From IMG/VR virus record IMGVR_UViG_2537561977_000023, positions 1 to 10,687 of that record: 10,687 nt of DNA; one strand, written 5' to 3'. The translations under genes were made by a program, and so were the position numbers. This document shows, in pieces, positions 1-10,687 of the stretch. How positions within the stretch are numbered: position 1 is the stretch's first letter; each line of letters starts with the position of its first letter. The notes beneath the pieces were generated by a model. That model worked only from the letters and a program-made list of their open reading frames with translations, was not told the origin of the DNA and searched no databases. Source of the stretch: a virus. Taxonomy: Duplodnaviria; Heunggongvirae; Uroviricota; Caudoviricetes.

Positions 1-933
1 ACATTCCATTAATGCAATACTGAACTGGCTTACCTGAGTTGTATCAATTAGTGCATCTCTGTTTGAGTTAACGGAACCGGTAACAACATAACCTGACCTG
101 TCAGACCAGCCGGGACCATTCCATGTCTGAACAGATGACAGACCACCAAGGCGAATACCTGTAATAAACCTTGAGTTACATTCTGCCTGCGTATATGCGC
201 CAACATCTCTCGCTGATGGCTTGCGGGTTGTGGTGTAAAACTCTGACCAGTCAGCCTCAAATCCATAACCATCACGCGCTGAACGATAAAAAATACCGCC
301 GTTCTTATAATTCACACGGAACTGTACGGCAGGGCAACTCCCCGTATTCATATTGAAGTGGAGTATTAATGCTGTTGCGCCTTTGATATCTGCATCATAA
401 ACACCGCTATTCCAGTTCCAGCCAACAGCTTTATCATTTGCAACCCTGCTTCCTGTTTGCCCTAAAGCAAATGCAGGCTGCTGGTTTTTCGTGTTGTAGT
501 CTCGTCGCCAGCCAGGAGCGTAAGCATCACCATGATTAATATAAGTGAATTGAGCGTTAGTAATTCCGCCACCGCTGGACGTGCTCGGCGTGGTAACGCG
601 TATGGTCATTGCGCCGCGAGTGCCAATAACTTCCACCACAGCACCTGCAAGACAAATATTTCCGCAACCTGTATCTGTAATGACCTTATTATTTGCATAA
701 GCCCATGAGCCTTTGCACATCCAGTAAGGATGGTTAAATGCTCCCTGACTCTCCAGCCACGAAATAAATTGCGCGGTTGTCCAGACCTGACTATCGCCAC
801 CAATATTCAGCCATGAGCTATATGCGCGGCAGGCACCAATATTTTTGGTGAAGGTATCTTTCCCCGGAATATCTGCGCCGTTCTGGTTTTTCTGTAATGC
901 GCCAGAAGCCTGATTTACCGTTTCCTGTAAACC
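1..933 (-). CDS. Tail-fibre C-terminal variable-domain cassette (Mu Sv'/StfE-like), partial: continues beyond coordinate 1; no start codon, begins at the crossover site (silent orientation)
   Basis: Minus-strand frame with codons starting at coordinates divisible by 3 is open for 313 codons from 939 to the window edge. Translation NLGLQETVNQASGALQKNQNGADIPGKDTFTKNIGACRAYSSWLNIGGDSQVW...NGPGWSDRSGYVVTGSVNSNRDALIDTTQ is G/S/T/N/W/Y-rich like distal tail-fibre domains. Not in the ORF track because it has no in-window stop. Upstream stop TAA at 940-942 lies inside the crossover site. Confidence 0.7.
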
Positions 934-947
934 GAGGTTTTAGATAA
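922..947. other. gix/pix/cix-type 26-bp crossover site for the serine invertase (right-hand site of an invertible tail-fibre segment)
   Basis: TTCCTGTAAACC-GA-GGTTTTAGATAA: two imperfect inverted 12-bp half-sites around a central GA dinucleotide, 25/26 identical to the Mu gix sequence as I recall it (TTCCTGTAAACCGAGGTTTTGGATAA). Located 55 bp upstream of the invertase start, as in Mu/P1/e14. No second copy within the window. Confidence 0.7.
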
Positions 948-1001
948 TGGCCGTTTCCGGCCTGCATGGCATGATTTGCGCTTTTGGACGGGAGATTCAG
1001 C

Positions 1002-1588
1002 GTGCTGATTGGCTATGTAAGGGTATCAACAAATGACCAGAATACAGACCTGCAACGAAACGCTCTTGTTTGTGCAGGATGTGAACAAATATTTGAAGAT
1101 AAATTAAGCGGGACAAAGACAGACCGACCGGGATTAAAACGCGCTTTAAAGCGCCTTCAAAAAGGTGACACGCTGGTTGTCTGGAAACTGGATCGCCTCG
1201 GGCGAAGCATGAAACATCTGATTTCTCTCGTCGGGGAACTACGGGAGCGAGGAATTAATTTTCGCAGTCTGACCGACAGCATAGATACATCTTCTCCAAT
1301 GGGGCGTTTTTCTTCCACGTGATGGGTGCCCTGGCTGAAATGGAACGTGAATTAATTGTTGAACGTACACTGGCCGGACTGGCGGCAGCACGCGCACGGG
1401 GGCGCACAGGCGGACGTCGACCGAAGCTGACAAAAGAACAGCATGAGCAAATAGCAAGGCTGATCAAAAACGGGCACGACAGAAAACAACTGGCAATAAT
1501 TTACGGCATTGGTATATCGACGATTTATCGTTACCACCCCGCAGGAGAATCAATCGGAACAATAGAGAAGAGTCAGGAAACAAAATAA
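1002..1588 (+). pseudogene. Serine DNA invertase, Gin/Pin/Cin/Hin family; reading frame broken by a 1-base deficit in the T5 run at 1307-1311 (may be a sequencing artefact)
   Basis: GTG at 1002 preceded by GGAG (991-994). N-terminus [37 protein letters not shown]... is nearly identical to Gin as recalled, with the catalytic serine motif. ORFs 984..1322 and 1319..1588 are the two halves; adding one T gives ...[19 protein letters not shown]... and a protein of about 195 aa. Confidence 0.85.
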
Positions 1589-1616
1589 CCGCTAATCTGA
1601 CCATTAGCGGTTTTTG
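1588..1616. terminator. Bidirectional intrinsic terminator shared by the convergent invertase (+) and U (-) genes
   Basis: Perfect 9-bp stem ACCGCTAAT/ATTAGCGGT with 6-nt loop, followed by TTTTTGTGTT on the plus strand and TATTTTGTTT on the minus strand. Confidence 0.6.
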
Positions 1617-1623
1617 TGTTAAA

Positions 1624-2118
1624 TCAGAACAACCCTTTAACTGAACTGGCCGCGCTGTTAAGGGATGATGTTACCTTATCTTTGAAGCCGGACAGCATAT
1701 CGCTGAACGATGAGGATTGCAGGCGCTCCCGCAAATCCTCATCACAGCGTTCAAGAGTCAGTGAAAATTCTATCTTTTTCGCCTTACCGTAGCGATCAAA
1801 CTCGGAGCGGGTCGTATTCGTTTCGGTCAGGACATACATGCCGTAAATCTGCCCGACGCCATCAATCAGAGGCCAGGGTCGTCCTGTATACGCCTGCGTG
1901 GTCAGCAGCGACAGCGACACTTCGCCACCTGTAATTTCAGGATAAAGCACACCAGAAAGAACGATGCGCTCATCACCTGCACCGATATACTGCCAGCTTG
2001 CCGAACGGTTAACGCGTTCATTTTTCACATGCCGCCAGCTTTTGTTTTGCTGTAACTGCTGATGCGGCAATGTACGCAGCTCAAAAACAAACATGCCGTA
2101 GATCATCATCATGGCCAT
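1624..2118 (-). CDS. U: P2 gpU-like tail protein
   Basis: 164-aa ORF directly downstream of the tape measure gene, in the position of P2 U; ATG at 2118 or 2112 with GGAG upstream. Family assignment is by synteny and recalled similarity. Confidence 0.6.
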   Translation of the reverse strand: MAMMMIYGMFVFELRTLPHQQLQQNKSWRHVKNERVNRSASWQYIGAGDERIVLSGVLYPEITGGEVSLSLLTTQAYTGRPWPLIDGVGQIYGMYVLTETNTTRSEFDRYGKAKKIEFSLTLERCDEDLRERLQSSSFSDMLSGFKDKVTSSLNSAASSVKGLF

Positions 2119-2124
2119 GACTCC

Positions 2125-4966
2125 TCAATCTTTATCGTAAAAACTGCCACGCCCGGCACGGCCGCGCCGTTCCATTTCTGCCCTGACCATTTCACCGACC
2201 AGTTTCGCCAGTTCGCGGGGATTCTGCGTAACAACGTTATGCAGATGAACATGAATTTCACCACCAAATCCGGAGGCAACAGGCTCCCGGTTACGGGAAG
2301 TTACAGGAACTGATGCCACTGGAGAGCGTATGGCCTCCGCCACCGGGCGGGAGCTGGCCGCAACAACAGGGACCAGCGCCGGAGGCAGCGGAGCCGGGAC
2401 CACGGGTGTGATATTAATTGCGGGGGCAGGCTTACTGACCTGCGCAATCTTCCGCTCCTGCCACTCCCCACGAACAGCAAGTGCGCGGGGCAGGTTCTTA
2501 AAGACAATATCGCCGGGGCCAATGCGTTTTTTCGTCTCATCAACCAGCTTACCTGTGTTATCAGCAATTTTGCTGAGTCTGCGTAGCGTCCCGGTATTGC
2601 TGTCTGTGAGCGGTTTGTTGTCTTTGGGTTTATCACCTCCGGTGCCATTGCCATTTTCCACAGGCTTCGGCGGATTGATTTTCGCCAGGTCCCCCTGAAG
2701 CAAGGCAACCTTGTCCTGAAGAATGGCCGCACGCTGTGCGTCTTCGATTTTCTTGCGCGCCCTTTCCGCTTCATCCGGAAGGACGCCAAGTTTTTCAAGT
2801 ATCCACGCCAGCGTATCCAGTAGCATTTTTGCAGGTGTCAGAACAAGTTGTAACGCACCGCCAAGAACGTTACCGAATATCTCGCCAGCACTGGCACATT
2901 TATCCAGCGTTTCCTTGCTGGACTCCATCGGTGACAGCAGCGATTTAAACCAGTTAAAGACCTGAATAATCCCATCGCGCACGACATCAAAAACAGGGCC
3001 AAACCGTTCAAAGGTTTCGCGCAACGGGGTCAGCCTTTCCATAATCCCGCTGAACACCCCGGCAAAAAATGCCCTGATGGGATCCCAGTATTTCCAGATA
3101 AGAACGGCAGCTCCGGCAAGCGCAGCCACGATAAGACTAACCGGACTGAACAGCGCCCCGATAGCGCCACCAAGTAAAGAAACGGAACCCGTCACCATTC
3201 CCCATAATGCAGGCAGAACCCTGACAACATTCATTGATTCGGTCAGGAGAGAAAACCGAGACGCAACGTAGCCAGCTTCCCGTGAAGCACCCCAATAACC
3301 AGAGACAACGAACCAACCGTTGCTGTTGTCGCCAGCAGTGCGCCTCCCGCTATCAGTAACTGGCGCGTCAGTGCCGGGTGGGCCTGCGCCAGCGCCGTCA
3401 CCTTTGAGACAACCCGCGTGAGCCACTGCGTGACAGAACGCAGCGGACCGTCAACCAGATCACTGATGCGAATACGCAGACCTTCCCATGCACTGCCGAG
3501 TGATTTCAGGTTGCCATCAAGGTTATTGGCCATAACCTTTGCCGTGCGTTCTGCCTCACCGCGCGCGCCTTCAAGTTCTTTTCTCAGTTTGGCTAAGAAG
3601 CCGTCACCTGCCGCATCAACGAGGCCCATAAATGATGTGAAAGCCTCTTCTCCGGCAATGTCCTTAAAGAACGATACCCGGTCAACCTCCCCGTATTTGC
3701 GGGTGGCTTTATAGAGATCGGCCAGCACATTCTCCATCGGGCGCATTTTGCCTTTGGCGTCAGCAACTGACACCCCCAGCTCTTTCAGTGCTTCTGCCGC
3801 TGCCTTTGGCGGTGATGACAGATTGGCCAGGCTTTTACGCAACGCTGTACCCGCATCACTCCCCCTGATACCCATCTTCGCCAGCACGCCCGCCATCGCT
3901 GCGGCCTGCTCCAGCGATATTCCCAGCTTACCCGCCACCGGACCTGCATATTTCATGGTTTCGCCCAGTGCGCGAAGGTCAGTGTTGGTACGGGTAAACG
4001 CTGCGGTAAGTGTGTCACCGACCCGGTCCATCTGGTCAGCAGAGAGGCCGAACTGCGTCAGGATATTGGAACCAATATCCGCCGTCTCGCCGAGGTCCAT
4101 ACCGCCAGCCGTTGCCATGCTCAGCACGCCGGGAAGCGCAGCCTGAATGGCCTGCGGTGTGAAACCAGCCATTGCAAGAAATGCCTGTCCACTGGCGGCA
4201 TCGCCTGCGGTGAACTGCGTTTCAGAGCCAAGTTTTAACGCCTGCTCACGCAGCGCCTTAAACTGCGGGCTGTTTTTATCGATTCGCGTCAGTGCCTGAA
4301 CACGGGACATCTCTTTCCCGAACCCGATAGCGGGCTGCAAAAAACGCCCGGCAGCATAGCCGCCCGCTGCCGCCGCACCTGTTGCCAGCGCACCACCTGT
4401 TTTCAGTTTTCCCGCTGTTTCCTGCGCGCGTGAATACCGCTCACGCGCCTGCGTTACACGCGCAAGCGCCCGCCGTTCGCGTTCAAGCTGGTTGTTGTAT
4501 TGTCCGGTGCGTCTGATGGCCTGCTGGATGGTGTTATCGCTGCCTGTCAGGGAATGCCGTGGCGTTTCAGCTCTCCGCCAAGCTCCCGCATTTTCTGAAT
4601 TTCCCGTGTGCGCGATTCATTCAGGCGTTCAAGCCGGATGCTTAACTGCTGCATCAGCTTTTGTTGTTTTTCGCTGAGCACTGTACCCGTGCGTTGTAAC
4701 TGATTAAGGGCGTTAAGCTGGCGTCGTGCTTTCACGATCCCCGCATCCGCTTTACTGACAGCGTCACGGGCGCGCTCAAATGAACGCGCCTGACGCCCGA
4801 GATTTTTGATCGCCCCCTGCGTTCGCTGGATGGAGTCACCAAACTGCCCCATCAGGCGGCGGGCGTTTTCGGCAGGCCGGGTCAGCCTGTCAACGGCGCT
4901 GAAAGCGACCCGGATATCAAGAGTCTTCATTGTCTGCATTCCCGCTGCGAAGTGCCGCCCGCTCAC
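2125..4966 (-). pseudogene. T: Tail tape measure protein (P2 gpT-like), about 940 codons, split over three frames by two 1-base deficits (may be sequencing artefacts)
   Basis: ORFs 4547..4966, 3243..4340 and 2125..3426 are consecutive pieces of one gene. Coiled-coil-like N-terminal part, hydrophobic glycine-rich segments (LLIAGGALLATTATVGSLSLVIGVL; GAIGALFSPVSLIVAALAGAAVLIW) typical of tape measure proteins. Frame restored by adding one base at G3 4550-4552 and at A4 3252-3255 (plus-strand bases). Start uncertain: GTG 4966, ATG 4939 or ATG 4930. Confidence 0.75.
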
Positions 4967-5446
4967 GCCAGCTGACCACTTCGCCGGGCGTCATCATGAA
5001 GATTTCGGCGGGCGACCAGTTAAAAATAACGGCAATATCTGCCACAAAGTCTTCTATGTGCTCAAAGCACACAACCGTGATCAGGCTTCCGTCGCCTGTT
5101 CGTTCTTCCCGCCAGAGTCCGCACCGCTCAAAAAATTTACGGCAACCACACATAACTGAATAAAGTCACGGGATGCCATTTTTTTGATCGTCACTTCATC
5201 CAGTCGCGGTGATGTCACGCGTGACAGCAGCGTAAACATGGATTCCGCTTTCAGATTCAGCACATCAGACAGCGACAAATCTCGCAGAGATCCAGCCTGC
5301 TCAATAGCTCCGGTGATCTCCACATACGTGATTTTTTCGCCGCCTCGCTCAATTGGTTGGGTAAGTTTTACGCCACGCTCACTGGTTTCTTTCACAGTGT
5401 CAGCAACGACCGTGTTTTCGGTATCGATGTTTTTCGTCTCTTTCAT
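4917..5446 (-). CDS. Tail assembly chaperone E+E' fusion made by programmed -1 ribosomal frameshift (P2 E/E' type; analogous to lambda G/GT)
   Basis: The E frame (5446..5081) and the overlapping -1 frame (ORF 4917..5153) are joined at slippery heptamer T TTT TTG (minus strand; plus coordinates 5129-5135). Position immediately upstream of the tape measure gene, as expected. Confidence 0.65.
5081..5446 (-). CDS. E: Tail assembly chaperone E (P2 gpE-like), 121 aa
   Basis: ATG at 5446 with AAGGAG 5 nt upstream; located between the tube and tape measure genes; contains the slippery site near its 3' end. Confidence 0.7.
   Translation of the reverse strand: MKETKNIDTENTVVADTVKETSERGVKLTQPIERGGEKITYVEITGAIEQAGSLRDLSLSDVLNLKAESMFTLLSRVTSPRLDEVTIKKMASRDFIQLCVVAVNFLSGADSGGKNEQATEA
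5129..5135 (-). other. Slippery heptanucleotide T TTT TTG for the E/E' -1 programmed frameshift
   Basis: X XXY YYZ heptamer in the E zero frame (AAT TTT TTG); the -1 frame stays open for 70 further codons to the stop at 4917-4919. Confidence 0.6.
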
Positions 5447-5500
5447 CAGGAAACTCCTTTCAGTCAGAGGCGACGCACTGCGCCGCCTGCATATTACTTA

Positions 5501-6011
5501 TCAGCCAAGCCCGAGCGCGGAACGGATGCGATCGGGCACAATGTCCCTGCCGTCCTTCCGGTAAATGAAGTTCAGCAGGTCAATCTCCCACAACGGGCGA
5601 TCGTTAACACTCAGCTTGTAGTAGGTGTTTTTAATGGCGTAAGTGTGTGATGTGGCTTCGCCCTGTTTGGCTTCCCCCATATCAATTTCCGTCACACGTC
5701 CGCGCATTTCGACTTCATACAGGTCGCTTTCAGCGTCGGTGTAGTATTCACCCGCAAAACGCAGCAGCGTACCGTCAATCGTGCCGCCATACTTCAGGAA
5801 CAACTCACGAACTGCGCCCCCATGACAAAGCTCGCATCAAGCGCGGAGTCGTCCAGGCCGAGATCAATACTTACTGCCCCCATCATGCCACCACCCCGGT
5901 AGCTGTCGGTTTTGCGCGTCAGTTTAGGCAGAGTGACGGACGTCACCTTACCCACTTCGTTTTCACCATCCACAAACAGCGTAAAAAACGAAGATTTTTT
6001 GGTACAGCCAT
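5501..6011 (-). pseudogene. FII: Major tail tube protein (P2 gpFII-like), about 170 codons, interrupted by two 1-base deficits (may be sequencing artefacts)
   Basis: ATG at 6011 overlaps the sheath stop (TGATG) and has GGGAGG upstream. Pieces MAVPK / KSSFFTLFVDGENEVGKVTSVTLPKLTRKTDSYRGGGMMGAVSIDLGLDDSALDASFVMG / GAVRELFLKYGGTIDGTLLRFAGEYY...SALGLG. Frame restored by adding one base to T6 5995-6000 and to C5 5817-5821 (plus-strand runs). Confidence 0.7.
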
Positions 6012-7194
6012 CAGACACCTCCCAGCACCGCAAATGCGGGACCAAAGAATTCATCAGTAAACGTCTGGTAAAGCTCCATATCTTCCAGTGGCGGAACGGG
6101 CGTATATTTGTAGCGAATACGCACGCGCCCCTGACGTAAATCCGTGGTGCCGTTATCCACCACGTCATACCAGCACGACGCCCCAATCAGTTTCCCGGCA
6201 GTCACCAGTGAATCCAGTTTTGCCCTGATGGCACTGATAACATCCTTCACGTTCGCAGGCGTCAGTGGACTGTCGATGGTTTCAAACTGCGCTTCCGCAA
6301 TTGAATCAGCCAGCACCTGTGCGGTTCGGGTATACACCTCAAAGATGTAGGCGTTCGTTTCCGGTGTGCGGTTGCCCCAGAAGCGGAACCCGTTACGACG
6401 AATAATGGTCGTGATTTCTTTGTTGTTGAGGCTGTTGGCATCACTGTCTTCGGCCTGTAACGACCAGAACACATGCCTCGACATCCCCAGCACATTTTTA
6501 ACCGGAACGTTGGACAGTGATTTGTGCCATCCCTGCTCATGGTCAATGTACGCACGAAGGCCGCACGCACAGGCAGGCGCGGGGAACGTTTCGTTTTTGC
6601 CACTTTTCGGGTTCCAGGCGATGAAGTCCGGCCATAAGAGCATCACCTCACGTTCGTTGAATTTCTGGCGGTAGGTAATCGCCTCAGCCATCGTGTTACA
6701 GCCATGACATGAGGCATACACAAACGCGCGCAGTTTACCTGCAATCACGCACAGGGATTTTGCACCGCCTCCGTGTCCAGCTCCGGCGCGGCCAGAATAC
6801 GCGGACGGTATCCGATGCTTTCATCCTGCTCTGCAACAAGCAGCGCATACATCCCCGTATAGCTGCCGTCATCCTCAGAACCACCGATAACCAGTTGATC
6901 CTGCGTCTTTCCGTCTTCTTCTTTGTGTTCAGCCACGCGAACGACGATCACCTTTGTGCTCACCTGGTCTGCGATGGCCTTAAGCGCACGATAAAGCGTC
7001 CCCGTTGTCCCGCATTTTCCCAGCACGTCATTGACGCGGGTCAGCAGTGTGGGCTTGTTCAGCGGGAACAGCTTCGCGTCCGCATCATCCGCCGTTGCCA
7101 CGATACCGATAACGCTGGAATCAACATCGTTAATCGCTGTTACCAGGTCGGTATTTTCCGTAACACGGGCACCATGAAAACGAGTTTCACTCAT
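6011..7194 (-). pseudogene. FI: Tail sheath protein (P2 gpFI-like), about 394 codons, interrupted by one 1-base deficit (may be a sequencing artefact)
   Basis: ORFs 6745..7194 (N-terminal) and 6011..6748 (C-terminal) are one gene. Motifs ILAAPELDTEAVQ, GFRFWGNRT, YTRTAQV and YTPVPPLE match P2 sheath as recalled. ATG at 7194 with AAGGGG upstream. Frame restored by adding one base to T4 6758-6761 (plus strand). Confidence 0.8.
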
Positions 7195-7351
7195 AGCTTC
7201 AGCCCCTTGTATCCGTTAAATGATTCGGCAACAATCATCACCCACCACGCGCGTAATCTCACCCCTGCGCCGTTCTCCCGCCACGGCGACAACGAAAAGC
7301 AGTAACCCCCTCCGCACGCACATGCGACCATGCCGCACAGGGAGGGAGCAG

Positions 7352-8461
7352 ATGACCGACACCACCATGCAATTGCTCAGTCAGAGCACAGCCCCCGTGA
7401 AAATGCCGGATTTTGATATTCTCGCGGAGGGTAAAACGCTGTCCGGCGTGGCAGAGCGCCTGATGAGCCTGTCGCTGACCGACAACCGGGGATTTGAAGC
7501 GGACCAGCTCACCATCACGCTGGATGATGCGGATGGTCAGTTGCAGCTACCACCACGGGGCGCGCGCCTGACGGTTCTCATTGGCTGGAAAGGAGAACCA
7601 CTGACAGAAAAAGGCACTTATATTGTTGATGAAATCGCTCACGAAGGACCGCCGGACAGGCTGACTGTTTCAGCCAGAAGCGCAGATTTTCGGGATGAAT
7701 TTAACGTTAAACGTGAGGTGTCCTGGCATGATGTGACCGTTGAGCGTGTGGTATCCGCCATCGCTCACCGGTACGGTCTGAAACCGCAAATCAGCGAAAT
7801 GCTGATGGATATTGAAATCGACCACGCCGACCAGACCGAAGAAAGCGACATGTCCTTCCTTACGCGCATGGCGGAAATGCTGGGCGCAATCACTACGGTA
7901 AAAAGCGGTAATCTGTTATTCATCATGCCAGGCGGTGGCGTGAACGCACAGGGCCAGCCGTTGCCCTCGTTCGCCATCACGCGCAGCAGTGGCGATCGCC
8001 ATCAGTTCCGCATTGCTGACCGCGAAGCGTATACGGGGGTACGCGCTTACTGGCTTGATCTTAATTACGGGAAAAAGAAAAAAGTCAGCGTGAAACGCCG
8101 CAAACCGCCCAAGCCCAAAAAGGAGAAAAGCAGCAGCCGTGAAGGTGATTATATGGAAGGCGCGGAAGGCAATGTGTTTGTGTTACGCAAGACTTATCAG
8201 AACGAGCAGGCAGCAAGACGCGCAGCGGCGGCAAAGTGGCAGCAGCTACAACGCGGAGCCGCATCATTCTCCATCACGCTGGCGCGTGGACGTGCAGAAC
8301 TCTACCCCGAAATGCATGGCACGGTAACAGGATTTAAAAGCGAGATTGATAATCAGGACTGGATCATTGCAAAAGCCGGGCACACCATTGATAACAGCGG
8401 CTTTACCACACAGCTTGAGCTTGAGGCAAAAATCCCGGAATGGATAGCAGAAACAGAGTGA
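7352..8461 (+). CDS. D: P2 gpD-like tail protein (phage late control D family), 369 aa
   Basis: ATG at 7352 preceded by GGAGGGAG (7341-7348). The track's 7220 start adds a low-complexity N-terminal extension with no RBS and overlaps the FI promoter region, so 7352 is preferred. Confidence 0.75.
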   Translation: MTDTTMQLLSQSTAPVKMPDFDILAEGKTLSGVAERLMSLSLTDNRGFEADQLTITLDDADGQLQLPPRGARLTVLIGWKGEPLTEKGTYIVDEIAHEGPPDRLTVSARSADFRDEFNVKREVSWHDVTVERVVSAIAHRYGLKPQISEMLMDIEIDHADQTEESDMSFLTRMAEMLGAITTVKSGNLLFIMPGGGVNAQGQPLPSFAITRSSGDRHQFRIADREAYTGVRAYWLDLNYGKKKKVSVKRRKPPKPKKEKSSSREGDYMEGAEGNVFVLRKTYQNEQAARRAAAAKWQQLQRGAASFSITLARGRAELYPEMHGTVTGFKSEIDNQDWIIAKAGHTIDNSGFTTQLELEAKIPEWIAETE

Positions 8462-8503
8462 GCAACTTAGAATAGCGGCAACACCACGTTAAGGGAGGTC
8501 GCT

Positions 8504-8764
8504 ATGTTCCGTTGTCCGCTTTGTGGCGCATCTGCCCGTATCCGCACCAGTCGTCCGGAAAATGATTCAAACACCGTGCGGCAAAAGTATTACCAGTGTA
8601 ACAACCTGGAATGCGGCGTATGCTTCTCAACACTGGAAGCTTTCCATAAATTCACATCAAAACACGCCTCCGGCGTTCACTCTTCAGAAGGTATCCCGTG
8701 GCATGAACTGCCAGCTTCACACAGGGGAAACAATCAGATGAGTTTGCCTTTACCTCAGAATTAA
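8504..8764 (+). CDS. ogr: Ogr/Delta-family zinc-finger late-gene transcriptional activator, 86 aa
   Basis: MFRCPLCGASARIRTSR...YYQCNNLECGVCF has the CxxC...CxxxxC zinc-binding pattern and close similarity to P2 Ogr as recalled (MFHCPLC...HQCQNVNC). ATG at 8504 with AGGGAGG 5 nt upstream. Sits after D, as in P2. Confidence 0.8.
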   Translation: MFRCPLCGASARIRTSRPENDSNTVRQKYYQCNNLECGVCFSTLEAFHKFTSKHASGVHSSEGIPWHELPASHRGNNQMSLPLPQN

Positions 8765-8852
8765 CAGGCAGAATTGCCGGAGTAACAAAAAAGCGATAGA
8801 TTACGTGCGGGTGCCTTTCGGCTGATGGTCGGAGGGAATACCCGAAGGCCAG

Positions 8853-9089
8853 ATGTGGAAAGGCCCCGGAAAACATTTTTGTTTAACCGAGGCCCTAACA
8901 CTTCTTACCTTCGCAAGTAGAAGGTTAGCGCCTCTCCTCTCAGGAGACAAGCGTTATGACGCAAATTCCGTTAAAAACCCTGTTACTTTGCATAACTGCG
9001 GTAGCGATAATCTGGATCCTCCACACATCACCGTGCGAGTTACGATTCAGGTTTGCTGGCACGGAAATTGCGGCATTCTTACTATGTAA
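8853..9089 (+). CDS. mok-like overlapping reading frame of the hok locus (translational coupling frame), 78 aa
   Basis: ORF begins 103 nt upstream of the hok ATG and ends 7 nt before the hok stop in another frame, the arrangement known for mok/hok. Its own sequence is not distinctive. Confidence 0.4.
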   Translation: MWKGPGKHFCLTEALTLLTFASRRLAPLLSGDKRYDANSVKNPVTLHNCGSDNLDPPHITVRVTIQVCWHGNCGILTM

Positions 9090-9096
9090 TAAGTAA
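8956..9096 (+). CDS. Hok/Gef-family type I toxin (small membrane peptide), 46 aa; absent from ORF track
   Basis: Translation MTQIPLKTLLLCITAVAIIWILHTSPCELRFRFAGTEIAAFLLCNK: N-terminal hydrophobic helix followed by the conserved C-E-L-R-F-R ... E-(V/I)-A-A-F core seen in Hok, HokB and Gef as recalled. AGGAG at 8942-8946, 9 nt before the ATG. Confidence 0.75.
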   Translation: MTQIPLKTLLLCITAVAIIWILHTSPCELRFRFAGTEIAAFLLCNK

Positions 9097-9184
9097 GATA
9101 ACCGCGACGGGGGAGTAATCCCCCGTCAATCGGTTGCTAAGGTTGGTCGAAGCGGCACCCTATCTCACTGGCATGAACAACAAA

Positions 9185-9216
9185 CCCGCAGCGTAAAAAC
9201 TGCGGGTTTTCTTTTT
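9185..9216 (+). terminator. Intrinsic terminator, plus-strand orientation (candidate 3' end of the hok transcript)
   Basis: Stem CCCGCAG/CTGCGGG with 8-nt loop, followed by TTTTCTTTTT. Confidence 0.55.
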
Positions 9217-9248
9217 GGTTCCCTCATTCATGAGGACACCAAAAACAA

Positions 9249-9278
9249 AGCCCACAGCATAGAATCTGTGGGCTTTTT
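9249..9278. terminator. Intrinsic terminator hairpin, possibly bidirectional
   Basis: Perfect 9-bp stem AGCCCACAG/CTGTGGGCT with 8-nt loop; TTTTT follows on the plus strand and TTGTTTTTGG on the minus strand. Confidence 0.55.
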
Positions 9279-9352
9279 GCATTCAAAGATGGACGTTATA
9301 TGGACACTTAAAAATAAAATCCATTTATTTTCAAATAATTAAACTTCTGCTT

Positions 9353-9374
9353 AAAGCGCCCGCAGGCGCTTTTT
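9353..9374. terminator. Hairpin immediately 3' of serS (likely serS terminator; T-run is stronger on the plus strand)
   Basis: AAAGCGCC-CGCA-GGCGCTTT perfect 8-bp stem with 4-nt loop, about 20 nt downstream of the serS stop (9395-9397). Confidence 0.5.
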
Positions 9375-9394
9375 AGATTCAGAAAAATTGGGTA

Positions 9395-10687
<1,293 letters not shown>

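Follow-up and report, generated by a model that had tools for sequence, protein, structure and literature searches.

Between ogr, the late-gene activator (8504..8764, plus strand, Pfam Ogr_Delta 52.4 bits), and serS (9395..10687, minus strand, from the ORF list), the window, by which is meant the whole 10,687-nucleotide stretch of DNA analysed, carries a small locus directly downstream of ogr. An earlier note on this DNA had described a hok/mok-type type I toxin locus in a place where P2 has only attP. The type is borne out by a Pfam match above threshold, by a sub-threshold RF01794 match of the leader and by the end-pairing and Sok homologue located below, and the position by P2 itself, which has a terminator directly after ogr, only this terminator and attP between ogr and int, and no hok locus. 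The toxin gene, a hok-family ORF of 46 aa (8956..9096, plus strand), exists as the note had read it, with a good ribosome-binding site in the form of a Shine-Dalgarno AGGAG (8942-8946) 9 nt before the ATG, and it was indeed missed by the ORF track because it is shorter than 60 aa.

Hok is a well-known family of membrane-killing peptides. The peptide encoded here, MTQIPLKTLLLCITAVAIIWILHTSPCELRFRFAGTEIAAFLLCNK, has a hydrophobic stretch at approximately residues 8-22 (Kyte-Doolittle 15-mer maximum 2.75) and C-terminal to this the residues C-E-L-R-F-R-F-A-G-T-E-I-A-A-F, with the Hok/Gef C-terminal region (C27-E-L-R...E-I-A-A-F41) aligning with HokB and HokC, so the signature of a TM helix followed by C-E-L-R-F-R...E-I-A-A-F that had been recognised by eye is present. 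The profile search proposed at the time gave a match to Pfam HOK_GEF (PF01848) that scored 33.8 bits where 22 is the cut-off (E 2.5e-8) and covered positions 7-42 of the 42 in the profile, and PHROG 251 was matched at 50.6 bits (E 2.8e-13). The dN/dS of the hok frame against nine homologues is 0.12-0.40, that is purifying selection, and this together with the Pfam and PHROG matches argues that hok is not a chance ORF. The NCBIfam models for HokA (NF007290, 27.7 bits against a cut-off of 89) and for the Hok subfamily (NF007279, 25.2 bits against 73) score below threshold, and by profile score the peptide is not an equivalog of either, PGAP naming the identical protein simply Hok/Gef. No defence-system model of PADLOC was matched.

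It is apparent that the locus is already known, having been named by automatic annotation both in RefSeq and in phage P88. RefSeq WP_032140709.1, a 'Hok/Gef family protein' of P2-like prophages (e.g. in E. coli CFSAN018748 and H22), is identical to the 46-aa peptide, and the identical peptide together with DNA that is 100% identical over 8896-9100 is found in 37 complete E. coli genome records. A further call of the same peptide, P0001, has an N-terminal extension to 72 aa that is not encoded in the window and was set aside. A tblastn search of plasmids with the peptide (E <= 0.01) retrieved only the same 46-aa clade, and R1 and F hok were not retrieved. Literature searches that combined hok with P2-like phages or with ogr turned up no paper on this locus, and no published data were found on toxicity, Sok neutralisation, RNA stability or 3' processing of the 46-aa clade.

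The hok mRNA probably begins shortly after the end of ogr. A putative promoter (8774..8802, plus strand) has a -35 of TTGCCG (8774-8779), a 17-nt spacer and a -10 of TAGATT (8797-8802), with the +1, as read from sequence, a G at 8809, 6 nt past the -10. This start is also where position 1 of the Rfam model RF01794 aligns, and the -10 (TAGATT, TAAATT, TAGAAT, TACAGT or TACATT) keeps a constant distance from GGGTGCC in all 13 loci of an alignment drawn from P2-like phages, Stx phages, IncI plasmids and integrase elements. From here a full-length mRNA of approximately 400 nt (8809..9216) would run to the end of the T run of an intrinsic terminator (9182..9216, hairpin 9182-9209 with the T run to 9216), and it aligns end to end with the 12 other loci. 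Its MFE is -168.8 kcal/mol (z = -8.25 against shuffles). A generic consensus promoter scan gave no site over threshold in 8700-9400, neither this promoter nor that of Sok, and both promoters therefore rest on positional homology and conservation.

The covariance-model search that the earlier note had called for was made. RF01794, the 'sok' model, aligns over its full length (positions 1-157) with 8809-8967 of the hok strand at E 2.7e-9, which speaks for homology of the leader, but at 47 bits the match is under the gathering score of 59 and it surfaced only in the E-value mode of Rfam, there being no match anywhere in the whole window at gathering thresholds. The same model gives 110-118 bits on K-12 hokC and hokB (hok strand), 48 on P88 and 36 on 933W. 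A further 35 weak Rfam matches, to miRNA and leader models on terminator hairpins, were treated as chance.

The fold-back elements tac and fbi, which had been missed by eye, can now be placed. The tac-like 5' element (8809..8826, plus strand), which is seen in MFE folds of full-length and truncated RNA, in RNAalifold and in pair counts, has three alternative partners. The first is a local partner immediately downstream (8827..8843), found in the fold of RNA truncated at 9130 and in truncated folds of P88 and 933W, and this pairing resembles the metastable hairpin that R1 mRNA forms while nascent (PMC9841398). The second is a ucb-like element, GUGGAAAGGCCCC (8855..8867), which pairs with tac in the truncated and RNAalifold consensus folds, with columns 1-14 pairing columns 47-59 in 13 of 13 loci, and in the closed fold pairs instead with the GAGG region at 8887-8894. 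The third is the fbi-like element GUUGGUCGAAG-C-GGCACCC (9142..9160), which forms with tac an MFE helix of 18 bp with one bulge, 90-93% of cells being paired across the 13 loci. The variation in this helix is all one-sided and pair-preserving (U-A/U-G, G-C/G-U), and there are almost no true compensatory pairs because the 5' tac arm is invariant in 13 of 13 loci, yet the covariation score of the whole structure, 0.144, is above all 500 shuffles and all slid controls. The tac/fbi end-pairing of hok/sok is thus found in the modelled folds, and alternative partners of tac that would allow refolding after 3' processing are likewise predicted. The GNRA hairpin and intrinsic terminator that had been noted 3' of hok are also there, the first being a conserved 9-bp hairpin with a GUAA tetraloop (9106-9114/9119-9127), with 99.1% of cells paired across the 13 loci and compensatory changes at four pairs, and the second the terminator-like hairpin and T run given above.

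The antisense RNA had also been missed by eye, and together with its promoter it can be placed on the minus strand, convergent with hok and running from approximately 8914 to 8857. By hairpin homology, size and position a Sok-like RNA of approximately 58 nt (8857..8914) is predicted, with an 18-nt single-stranded 5' tail (GCGAAGGUAAGAAGUGUU), a hairpin (GGGCCUCGG...CCGGGGCC) and then UUUCC; its fold has -20.6 kcal/mol and a slightly longer stretch has z = -7.2. The putative Sok promoter (8922..8950, minus strand) has a -35 of TTGTCT (8950-8945), a 17-nt spacer and a -10 of TAACCT (8927-8922), with the +1 a G at 8914, 7 nt past the -10. This -10 is invariant in 14 of 14 loci and the -35 is TTGCTC in 10 of 14. 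The reference for comparison was the annotated K-12 sokB and sokC, in place of the mapped R1 sequence. The promoter geometry is identical to that upstream of annotated sokB (TTGCCG-17-TAAGAT-7-G), and SokB and SokC have the hairpin core GGCCUCGG...CGGGGCC in common with the Sok-like RNA. The K-12 RNAs are 57-59 nt, against 58 nt here, and lie 48-49 nt from the hok AUG, against 42 nt here, whilst relative to the mRNA 5' end in the RF01794 match annotated sokC covers 43-101 nt and the Sok-like RNA of the window 48-105 nt. At the level of sequence there is thus a cis-encoded antisense Sok of approximately 60 nt, with its own promoter and complementary to the leader.

Whether hok is translated through a mok frame is a separate matter. 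The earlier note had drawn attention to an ORF (8853..9089, plus strand) overlapping hok as mok does, and this part of its claim stands, as there are 78 open codons in an R1-like arrangement (hok = mok + 1) that end 7 nt before the hok stop, with GAAGG (8844-8848) 4 nt upstream of the AUG at 8853. If regulation were of the R1 type, with this ORF a working mok whose read-through hok needs and whose initiation is blocked by Sok, these features would be accounted for, as would the invariance of the AUG in 13 loci. Only 4 nt separate this AUG from the predicted Sok duplex, close enough for Sok possibly to occlude it, and the hok Shine-Dalgarno is predicted to be buried within a hairpin (8933-8938/8942-8947) with a P(unpaired) of 0.03-0.08, a buried hok Shine-Dalgarno being in R1 what makes mok translation necessary (PMC9841398). 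That the overlap is exactly that of mok with hok is doubtful, for the frame closes early in every other distinct locus checked. From the same AUG there are 19 codons in P88 and UTI89, 8 in 933W, 21 in P0003 and a single codon in 1720a-02 and the IncI plasmids, and in the other distinct loci checked there is no upstream start that overlaps hok, save for one TTG in P0004. The hok frame, by contrast, is under purifying selection. The AUG itself belongs to the conserved ucb-like helix, and structure alone could account for its invariance; it lies outside the Sok target, whereas the start of K-12 mokB is inside; no start codon is present within the Sok-tail target, where the mok genes of R1 and K-12 begin. 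A working mok is therefore an unlikely explanation of the locus. As the frame is open only in the window allele, with 1-21 codons in its relatives, a functional mok is doubtful even in that allele, and the 46-aa clade can probably do without coupling through a mok frame.

The note had offered two origins for the locus, either phage cargo or a host hok locus that became the integration target, and the genomic setting decides for the first. Downstream of the terminator lies a phage attP arm (9217..9352) of a serS-specific integration module, with a palindrome at 9222-9235 and a bidirectional terminator-like hairpin at 9247-9276, an arm that the serS prophage of UTI89 also has, whilst neither P88 nor the empty site of K-12 has it. 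This is followed by the att core AAAGCGCCCGCAGGCGCTTT (9353..9372), which is the serS terminator hairpin and is identical in the attR of the window, the attL of UTI89 and the attB of K-12, with the flanks switching on either side of it in these three sites. That the hok locus is only approximately 135 nt from the prophage-host junction might suggest that a chromosomal hok downstream of serS served as the integration target, but the whole distance lies inside the prophage, the att core at 9353-9372 being the serS terminator and not hok. The comparison with the empty site that had been proposed was also made, and no hok lies between serS and dmsA in K-12. Furthermore, phage P88 has the whole hok locus in its own genome, immediately following ogr, and hok is contiguous with ogr in prophages integrated elsewhere, e.g. 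next to raiA. With the K-12 empty site, the raiA-adjacent prophages and the position of the att core all against it, the host locus is refuted, with hardly any probability left to it, and the presence of the locus in P88, its lack at the K-12 empty site and an att core that lies some 135 nt further out make it phage cargo.

The relatives of the locus occupy the same place and differ in what surrounds them. In the prophages carrying WP_032140709.1 hok is likewise directly after ogr, although they adjoin raiA and have a com/DNA-methyltransferase pair after hok where the window has its serS-specific att/int module, and no complete genome has the exact combination of hok and serS att/int found in the window, the best full-length match being 87%. 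P88 gp52 (YP_009113095.1, 'MokW-like host killing', PHROG 251) occupies, as an annotated homologue, the place between ogr and att that hok has in the window, and so does the Hok of the UTI89 serS prophage (WP_000078920.1). In these two the 5' leader is 98.5% and the 3' UTR approximately 92% identical to the window, with promoter, tac, fbi, hairpin and terminator alike, whereas peptide identity is no more than 47.8%, which makes theirs a different allele of the cassette of toxin and Sok tail, and the uORF from the common AUG stops after 19 codons. The divergent stretch is 8901..9096, which holds the Sok 5' tail and target, the Sok promoter, the hok Shine-Dalgarno and the hok ORF. Identity to P88 is 65.5% in 8901-8955 and 62.4% in 8956-9096, against 98.5% in 8765-8900, approximately 92% in 9097-9216 and 96.3% in 6-8764, and the homology with P88 ends exactly at 9216. 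Judged by these identities, the Sok 5' tail, the Sok promoter and the hok ORF (8901-9096) form a swapped cassette.

Given that the hok loci on the chromosome of laboratory E. coli strains are reportedly often inactive (Pedersen and Gerdes 1999), it could be proposed that this is a decayed, non-functional relic, like the inactivated chromosomal loci of K-12, that the prophage passively carries. The scores of the clade under the Rfam and NCBIfam thresholds and its lack of a conserved mok would fit with this. However, there is no IS element, frameshift or truncation, and promoter, Shine-Dalgarno, ORF, fbi and terminator are all there, whilst the dN/dS of hok is that of a constrained gene and structural helices stay paired through compensatory changes. 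The locus has also been kept in P88, a phage recovered by induction, and in hundreds of E. coli genomes, and a relic thus appears improbable. It is very probable instead that the locus is a hok/sok-type type I toxin-antitoxin module, still intact, which a P88-like (Xuanwuvirus, P2-like) prophage carries between ogr and att as accessory cargo.

The most likely way for such a module to work is proposed by analogy with R1 hok/sok (PMC9841398). The full-length hok mRNA would be stable and translationally silent through its end-pairing, until slow 3' trimming takes off fbi and tac re-pairs with the ucb-like box, whereby the hok start and the loop that Sok targets (8897-8914) become exposed. Short-lived Sok would then pair with the exposed target, with the duplex being cleaved or the hok start closing again, and once Sok transcription stops Hok would be made and the inner-membrane potential would collapse. 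The predicted accessibility of the hok AUG in the window allele follows this course, with 0.28 in the full-length RNA, 0.89 in the truncated RNA and 0.27 in the truncated RNA with the Sok region occupied, but in the P88 and 933W alleles truncation opens no hok start in prediction and the 5' end folds locally instead. A thermodynamic switch between closed, open and Sok-bound states is therefore only weakly inferred. Prophage loss, or the shut-off of host transcription by another phage, could act as a trigger. A third possible trigger is late transcription that reads on past ogr and collides with the promoter of Sok, for no terminator-like site was found between ogr and hok (8700 to 9105), the terminator at 9182..9216 being the first one downstream of ogr, and late read-through could thereby switch the module on in lytic growth. 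As candidate roles, the module may stabilise the prophage, exclude other phages or assist lysis when the prophage is induced.

A more tentative reading, with a probability well short of even, joins two proposals. The 46-aa clade, which P88-like phages have in common with Stx phages, IncI plasmids and ogr/delta-integrase elements, may represent a form of hok/sok that is independent of mok and in which Sok acts directly on hok, by RNA refolding or cleavage and not through a leader ORF, and it may at the same time exchange toxin, Sok promoter and Sok tail as a cassette between conserved UTR arms. If true, this exchange would yield toxin and antitoxin alleles that do not cross-react, so that each of the P2-like prophages and satellites that share a host or compete could keep a killing module of its own. 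The unconserved mok, the swap of toxin and Sok tail and the lack of a terminator after ogr would, again if true, show how type I toxin-antitoxin systems diversify on phages, and that the rule of mok coupling derived from R1 is not universal in the family. The value of the locus is as a dissected example of its sub-clade, with promoter, tac, ucb, fbi, Sok, terminator and att core placed to the base.

Compared with hok/sok (parB) of R1, the likeness is in the Hok/Gef peptide, the mRNA of approximately 400 nt closed by 5'-3' tac/fbi pairing, the order of hairpin, fbi and terminator after the stop, the short cis-antisense RNA against the leader and, as predictions for the window, the alternative tac/ucb pairing and the local 5' hairpin (PMC9841398). 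The differences are that the leader of the window is below the Rfam gathering score, that there is no conserved mok and no start codon in the Sok target, and that the locus is on a phage and not a plasmid. HokC and HokB of K-12 have 36% peptide identity to the window Hok, and hokB/sokB and hokC/sokC differ in their far higher RF01794 scores (110-118 bits against 47), in having annotated mokB and mokC, and in being chromosomal, not phage-borne.

The name 'MokW-like host killing' of PHROG 251 suggested that the gene might be the hokW of the Stx2 prophage Sp5, an identity that was rejected as the primers of the paper on that system show a different, 51-aa gene (Takada et al. 2021, PMC8621323). 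That gene encodes an R1-like Hok (MKQQKAM...) with a GGGUGCUUGAGGC leader, against the 46-aa Hok of the window, to which a second ORF of 933W is related, one of 46 aa that lies near lom and carries no annotation. The hokW-sokW system is toxic and neutralised by Sok, and HokW is made upon prophage induction with phage release roughly doubled (Takada et al. 2021, PMC8621323), thus providing a tested precedent for a pro-phage role of a prophage-borne hok/sok.

The hok ORF described in an earlier note on this DNA is real, it encodes 46 aa on the plus strand (8956..9096) with AGGAG 9 nt upstream, and the ORF track missed it for its length alone, which is under the usual 60-aa cut-off. The assignment of its product, MTQIPLKTLLLCITAVAIIWILHTSPCELRFRFAGTEIAAFLLCNK, to the Hok/Gef family is borne out by a profile search, with 33.8 bits for Pfam Hok/Gef (E 2.5e-8, cut-off 22 bits) and 50.6 bits for PHROG 251. 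K-12 HokC and HokB are each 36% identical to the peptide, which falls far below the cut-offs of the NCBIfam HokA and Hok models, and a PADLOC search of the locus returned no match. The dN/dS of the frame against nine homologues is 0.12-0.40, thus the ORF evolves as a coding gene. Loci of this kind are known, and this very gene has an annotation already: the core (8896-9100) recurs with 100% identity in 37 complete E. coli genome records, in which PGAP names the product WP_032140709.1 "Hok/Gef family protein". Some novelty lies only in the readings that the locus works without mok and that it carries an exchanged cassette.

The hok mRNA can be laid out from a putative promoter (-35 TTGCCG 8774-8779, 17 nt, -10 TAGATT 8797-8802, +1 at 8809) to an intrinsic terminator (9182-9216), which together with a GUAA-loop hairpin (9106-9127) follows the ORF as had been claimed. 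The RNA 8809-9214 (406 nt) folds at -168.8 kcal/mol (z = -8.25), with a predicted helix of 18 bp and one bulge between the 5' tac element and its 3' partner fbi (8809-8826 with 9142-9160), a predicted hairpin over the hok SD (8933-8938 with 8942-8947) and a predicted helix closing the hok start (8926-8931 with 8951-8956). Thirteen homologous loci were aligned, drawn from P2-like prophages, Stx and lambdoid phages, IncI plasmids and integrase-linked elements. Pairing of the tac/fbi helix is 90-93% across them, and since its 5' arm does not vary, the changes preserve pairing but are one-sided only. Four pairs of the GNRA hairpin are compensatory, and none of the 500 shuffles and no slid control reaches the covariation score of the whole structure (0.144). 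The first codons of hok (8960-8971) form a conserved long-range helix with the 3' part of the ORF (9061-9072; 87.6% paired over the 13 loci), one pair showing six compensatory changes (CG, UA, AU), and this helix may add to closure of the hok start. RNAalifold prefers an alternative in which the 5' end pairs with 8855-8867, the predicted fold of an RNA truncated before fbi has this pairing too, and in predicted folds of shorter RNAs tac pairs with 8827-8843. On these models the three partners of tac would correspond to the fbi, ucb and metastable hairpin of the R1 mRNA (PMC9841398).

A covariance-model search gave a match of the whole Rfam model RF01794 ("sok") to 8809-8967 on the plus strand with E 2.7e-9, although its 47 bits are below the gathering score of 59. 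In K-12 the same model matches the hok strand of hokC (118 bits) and hokB (110 bits), with the annotated sokC antisense within the hokC match. Despite its name, 'sok antitoxin', the model follows the strand of the hok leader, so the strand of a match must not be taken as that of Sok. A putative Sok promoter lies on the minus strand (-35 TTGTCT 8950-8945, 17 nt, -10 TAACCT 8927-8922, 7 nt, +1 G 8914), its geometry the same as that upstream of K-12 sokB (TTGCCG-17-TAAGAT-7-G) and its -10 box invariant in 14 of 14 loci. The predicted Sok of 58 nt (minus strand, 8914 to ~8857) carries a free 5' tail of 18 nt and shares the hairpin core GGCCUCGG...CCGGGGCC with SokB and SokC, its position 48-105 nt from the mRNA 5' end matching that of sokC (43-101 nt).

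The interpretation in the earlier note is supported except for mok. The longer ORF (8853..9089) does overlap hok out of frame (hok = mok + 1), ending 7 nt before the hok stop, yet it is open in the window allele only; from the same invariant AUG the frame closes after 19 codons in P88 and UTI89, 8 in 933W, 21 in the homologous locus P0003 and 1 in 1720a-02 and the IncI plasmids. Apart from one TTG in the homologue P0004, the sister loci checked have no further upstream start that overlaps hok. Conservation of the AUG can be structural, since it lies within the ucb-like helix, and no start codon falls in the Sok-tail target, unlike K-12 mokB, which begins there. A functional mok is therefore unlikely. 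Predicted accessibility of the hok AUG in the window allele is 0.28 at full length, 0.89 when truncated and 0.27 when truncated with the Sok site occupied, a modelled pattern that would allow mok-independent control; as the same prediction did not reproduce it for the P88 and 933W alleles, such a control step is one we infer.

The locus (8765-9216) sits, as proposed, between ogr (8504..8764; Pfam Ogr_Delta 52.4 bits) and serS (9395..10687, minus strand), and it had been left open whether it was phage cargo or a host locus that became the integration target. Homology to P88 runs up to 9216, where the hok terminator ends, and the part homologous to the empty serS-dmsA site of K-12 begins only at the serS terminator. 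When the window junction is aligned with K-12 and with the opposite end of the UTI89 prophage, the three share an att core of 20 bp, AAAGCGCCCGCAGGCGCTTT, which is the serS terminator hairpin (9353-9372). Given these limits, the stretch 9217-9352 belongs to a serS-specific integration module as its phage att arm, and the hok locus, ~135 nt within the prophage, is phage cargo. In prophages located beside raiA this hok allele likewise comes after ogr, and this too speaks for phage cargo and against a host locus. Within the arm are a palindrome, CCTCATTCATGAGG (9222-9235), and a terminator-like hairpin that is bidirectional (9247-9276); they might serve as sites for Int/IHF or insulate transcription. 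A 27-kb record named as a plasmid, pBone4_3 (CP054252.1), carries the ogr-hok module followed by the serS-type att arm of UTI89, and resembles a plasmid less than it does a P2-like prophage that was excised or mis-assembled.

A serS P2-like prophage with this layout is found in ~290 of 5,426 complete E. coli genomes, including UTI89. Phage P88 (Xuanwuvirus, Peduoviridae) matches 6-8764 in a single piece at 96.3% identity and has a homologue in the same place after ogr, annotated "MokW-like host killing" of the hok/gef family. Under the match to 1-8400 the P88 annotation lists a DNA invertase and genes for tail fibres, which would make up an invertible host-range segment. Against the 96.3% of the upstream 8.7 kb, identity to P88 within the locus is a sharp mosaic, 98.5% over 8765-8900, 65.5% over 8901-8955, 62.4% over 8956-9096 and ~92% over 9097-9216, with the two Hok peptides 47.8% identical. 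What diverges coincides exactly with the 5' tail of Sok and its target, the promoter of Sok, and the SD and ORF of hok, and cores like that of the window (80-91% peptide identity) occur in other contexts, such as convergent to an ogr/delta gene beside an integrase. Read from these alignments, the mosaic indicates cassette replacement by recombination within conserved UTRs, not divergence in place; if so, such exchange might give Sok alleles that do not cross-react. The closest alleles (85-91% peptide identity) are in three E. coli contigs (L010, L011, L013), where hok at 1501-1647 faces, in convergent orientation, an Ogr/Delta-like gene of 84 aa with an integrase after it; this is a different mobile element, perhaps a satellite, so that the linkage of hok to ogr/delta genes comes in two architectures.

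Downstream of ogr P2 has only a terminator, Int/IHF sites and attP, so the remark that canonical P2 carries just attP there was correct. The rho-independent P2 terminator directly after ogr (NC_001895 24265-24288) is absent in the window, where none lies between ogr and the hok start (8764-8809). Read-through from ogr or the late operon could thus enter the locus against the Sok promoter, and the hok terminator would also end those transcripts. By homology, the molecular mechanism would be that of R1, and as candidate roles it may stabilise the prophage, exclude other phages or assist lysis. A literature search found no experimental data on the 46-aa Hok clade. The Stx2 phages 933W and Sp5 have a second hok-type locus adjoining lom, distinct from the published 51-aa hokW; in 933W (NC_000924.1 45660-45797) it is a 46-aa ORF, unannotated in RefSeq, with full leader, fbi and Sok promoter. 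Identity of the window gene with the published hokW-sokW of prophage Sp5 is ruled out, as hokW is an R1-like 51-aa gene and differs from the 46-aa gene here; hokW-sokW is itself a prophage hok/sok that is triggered by induction and roughly doubles phage release (PMC8621323).
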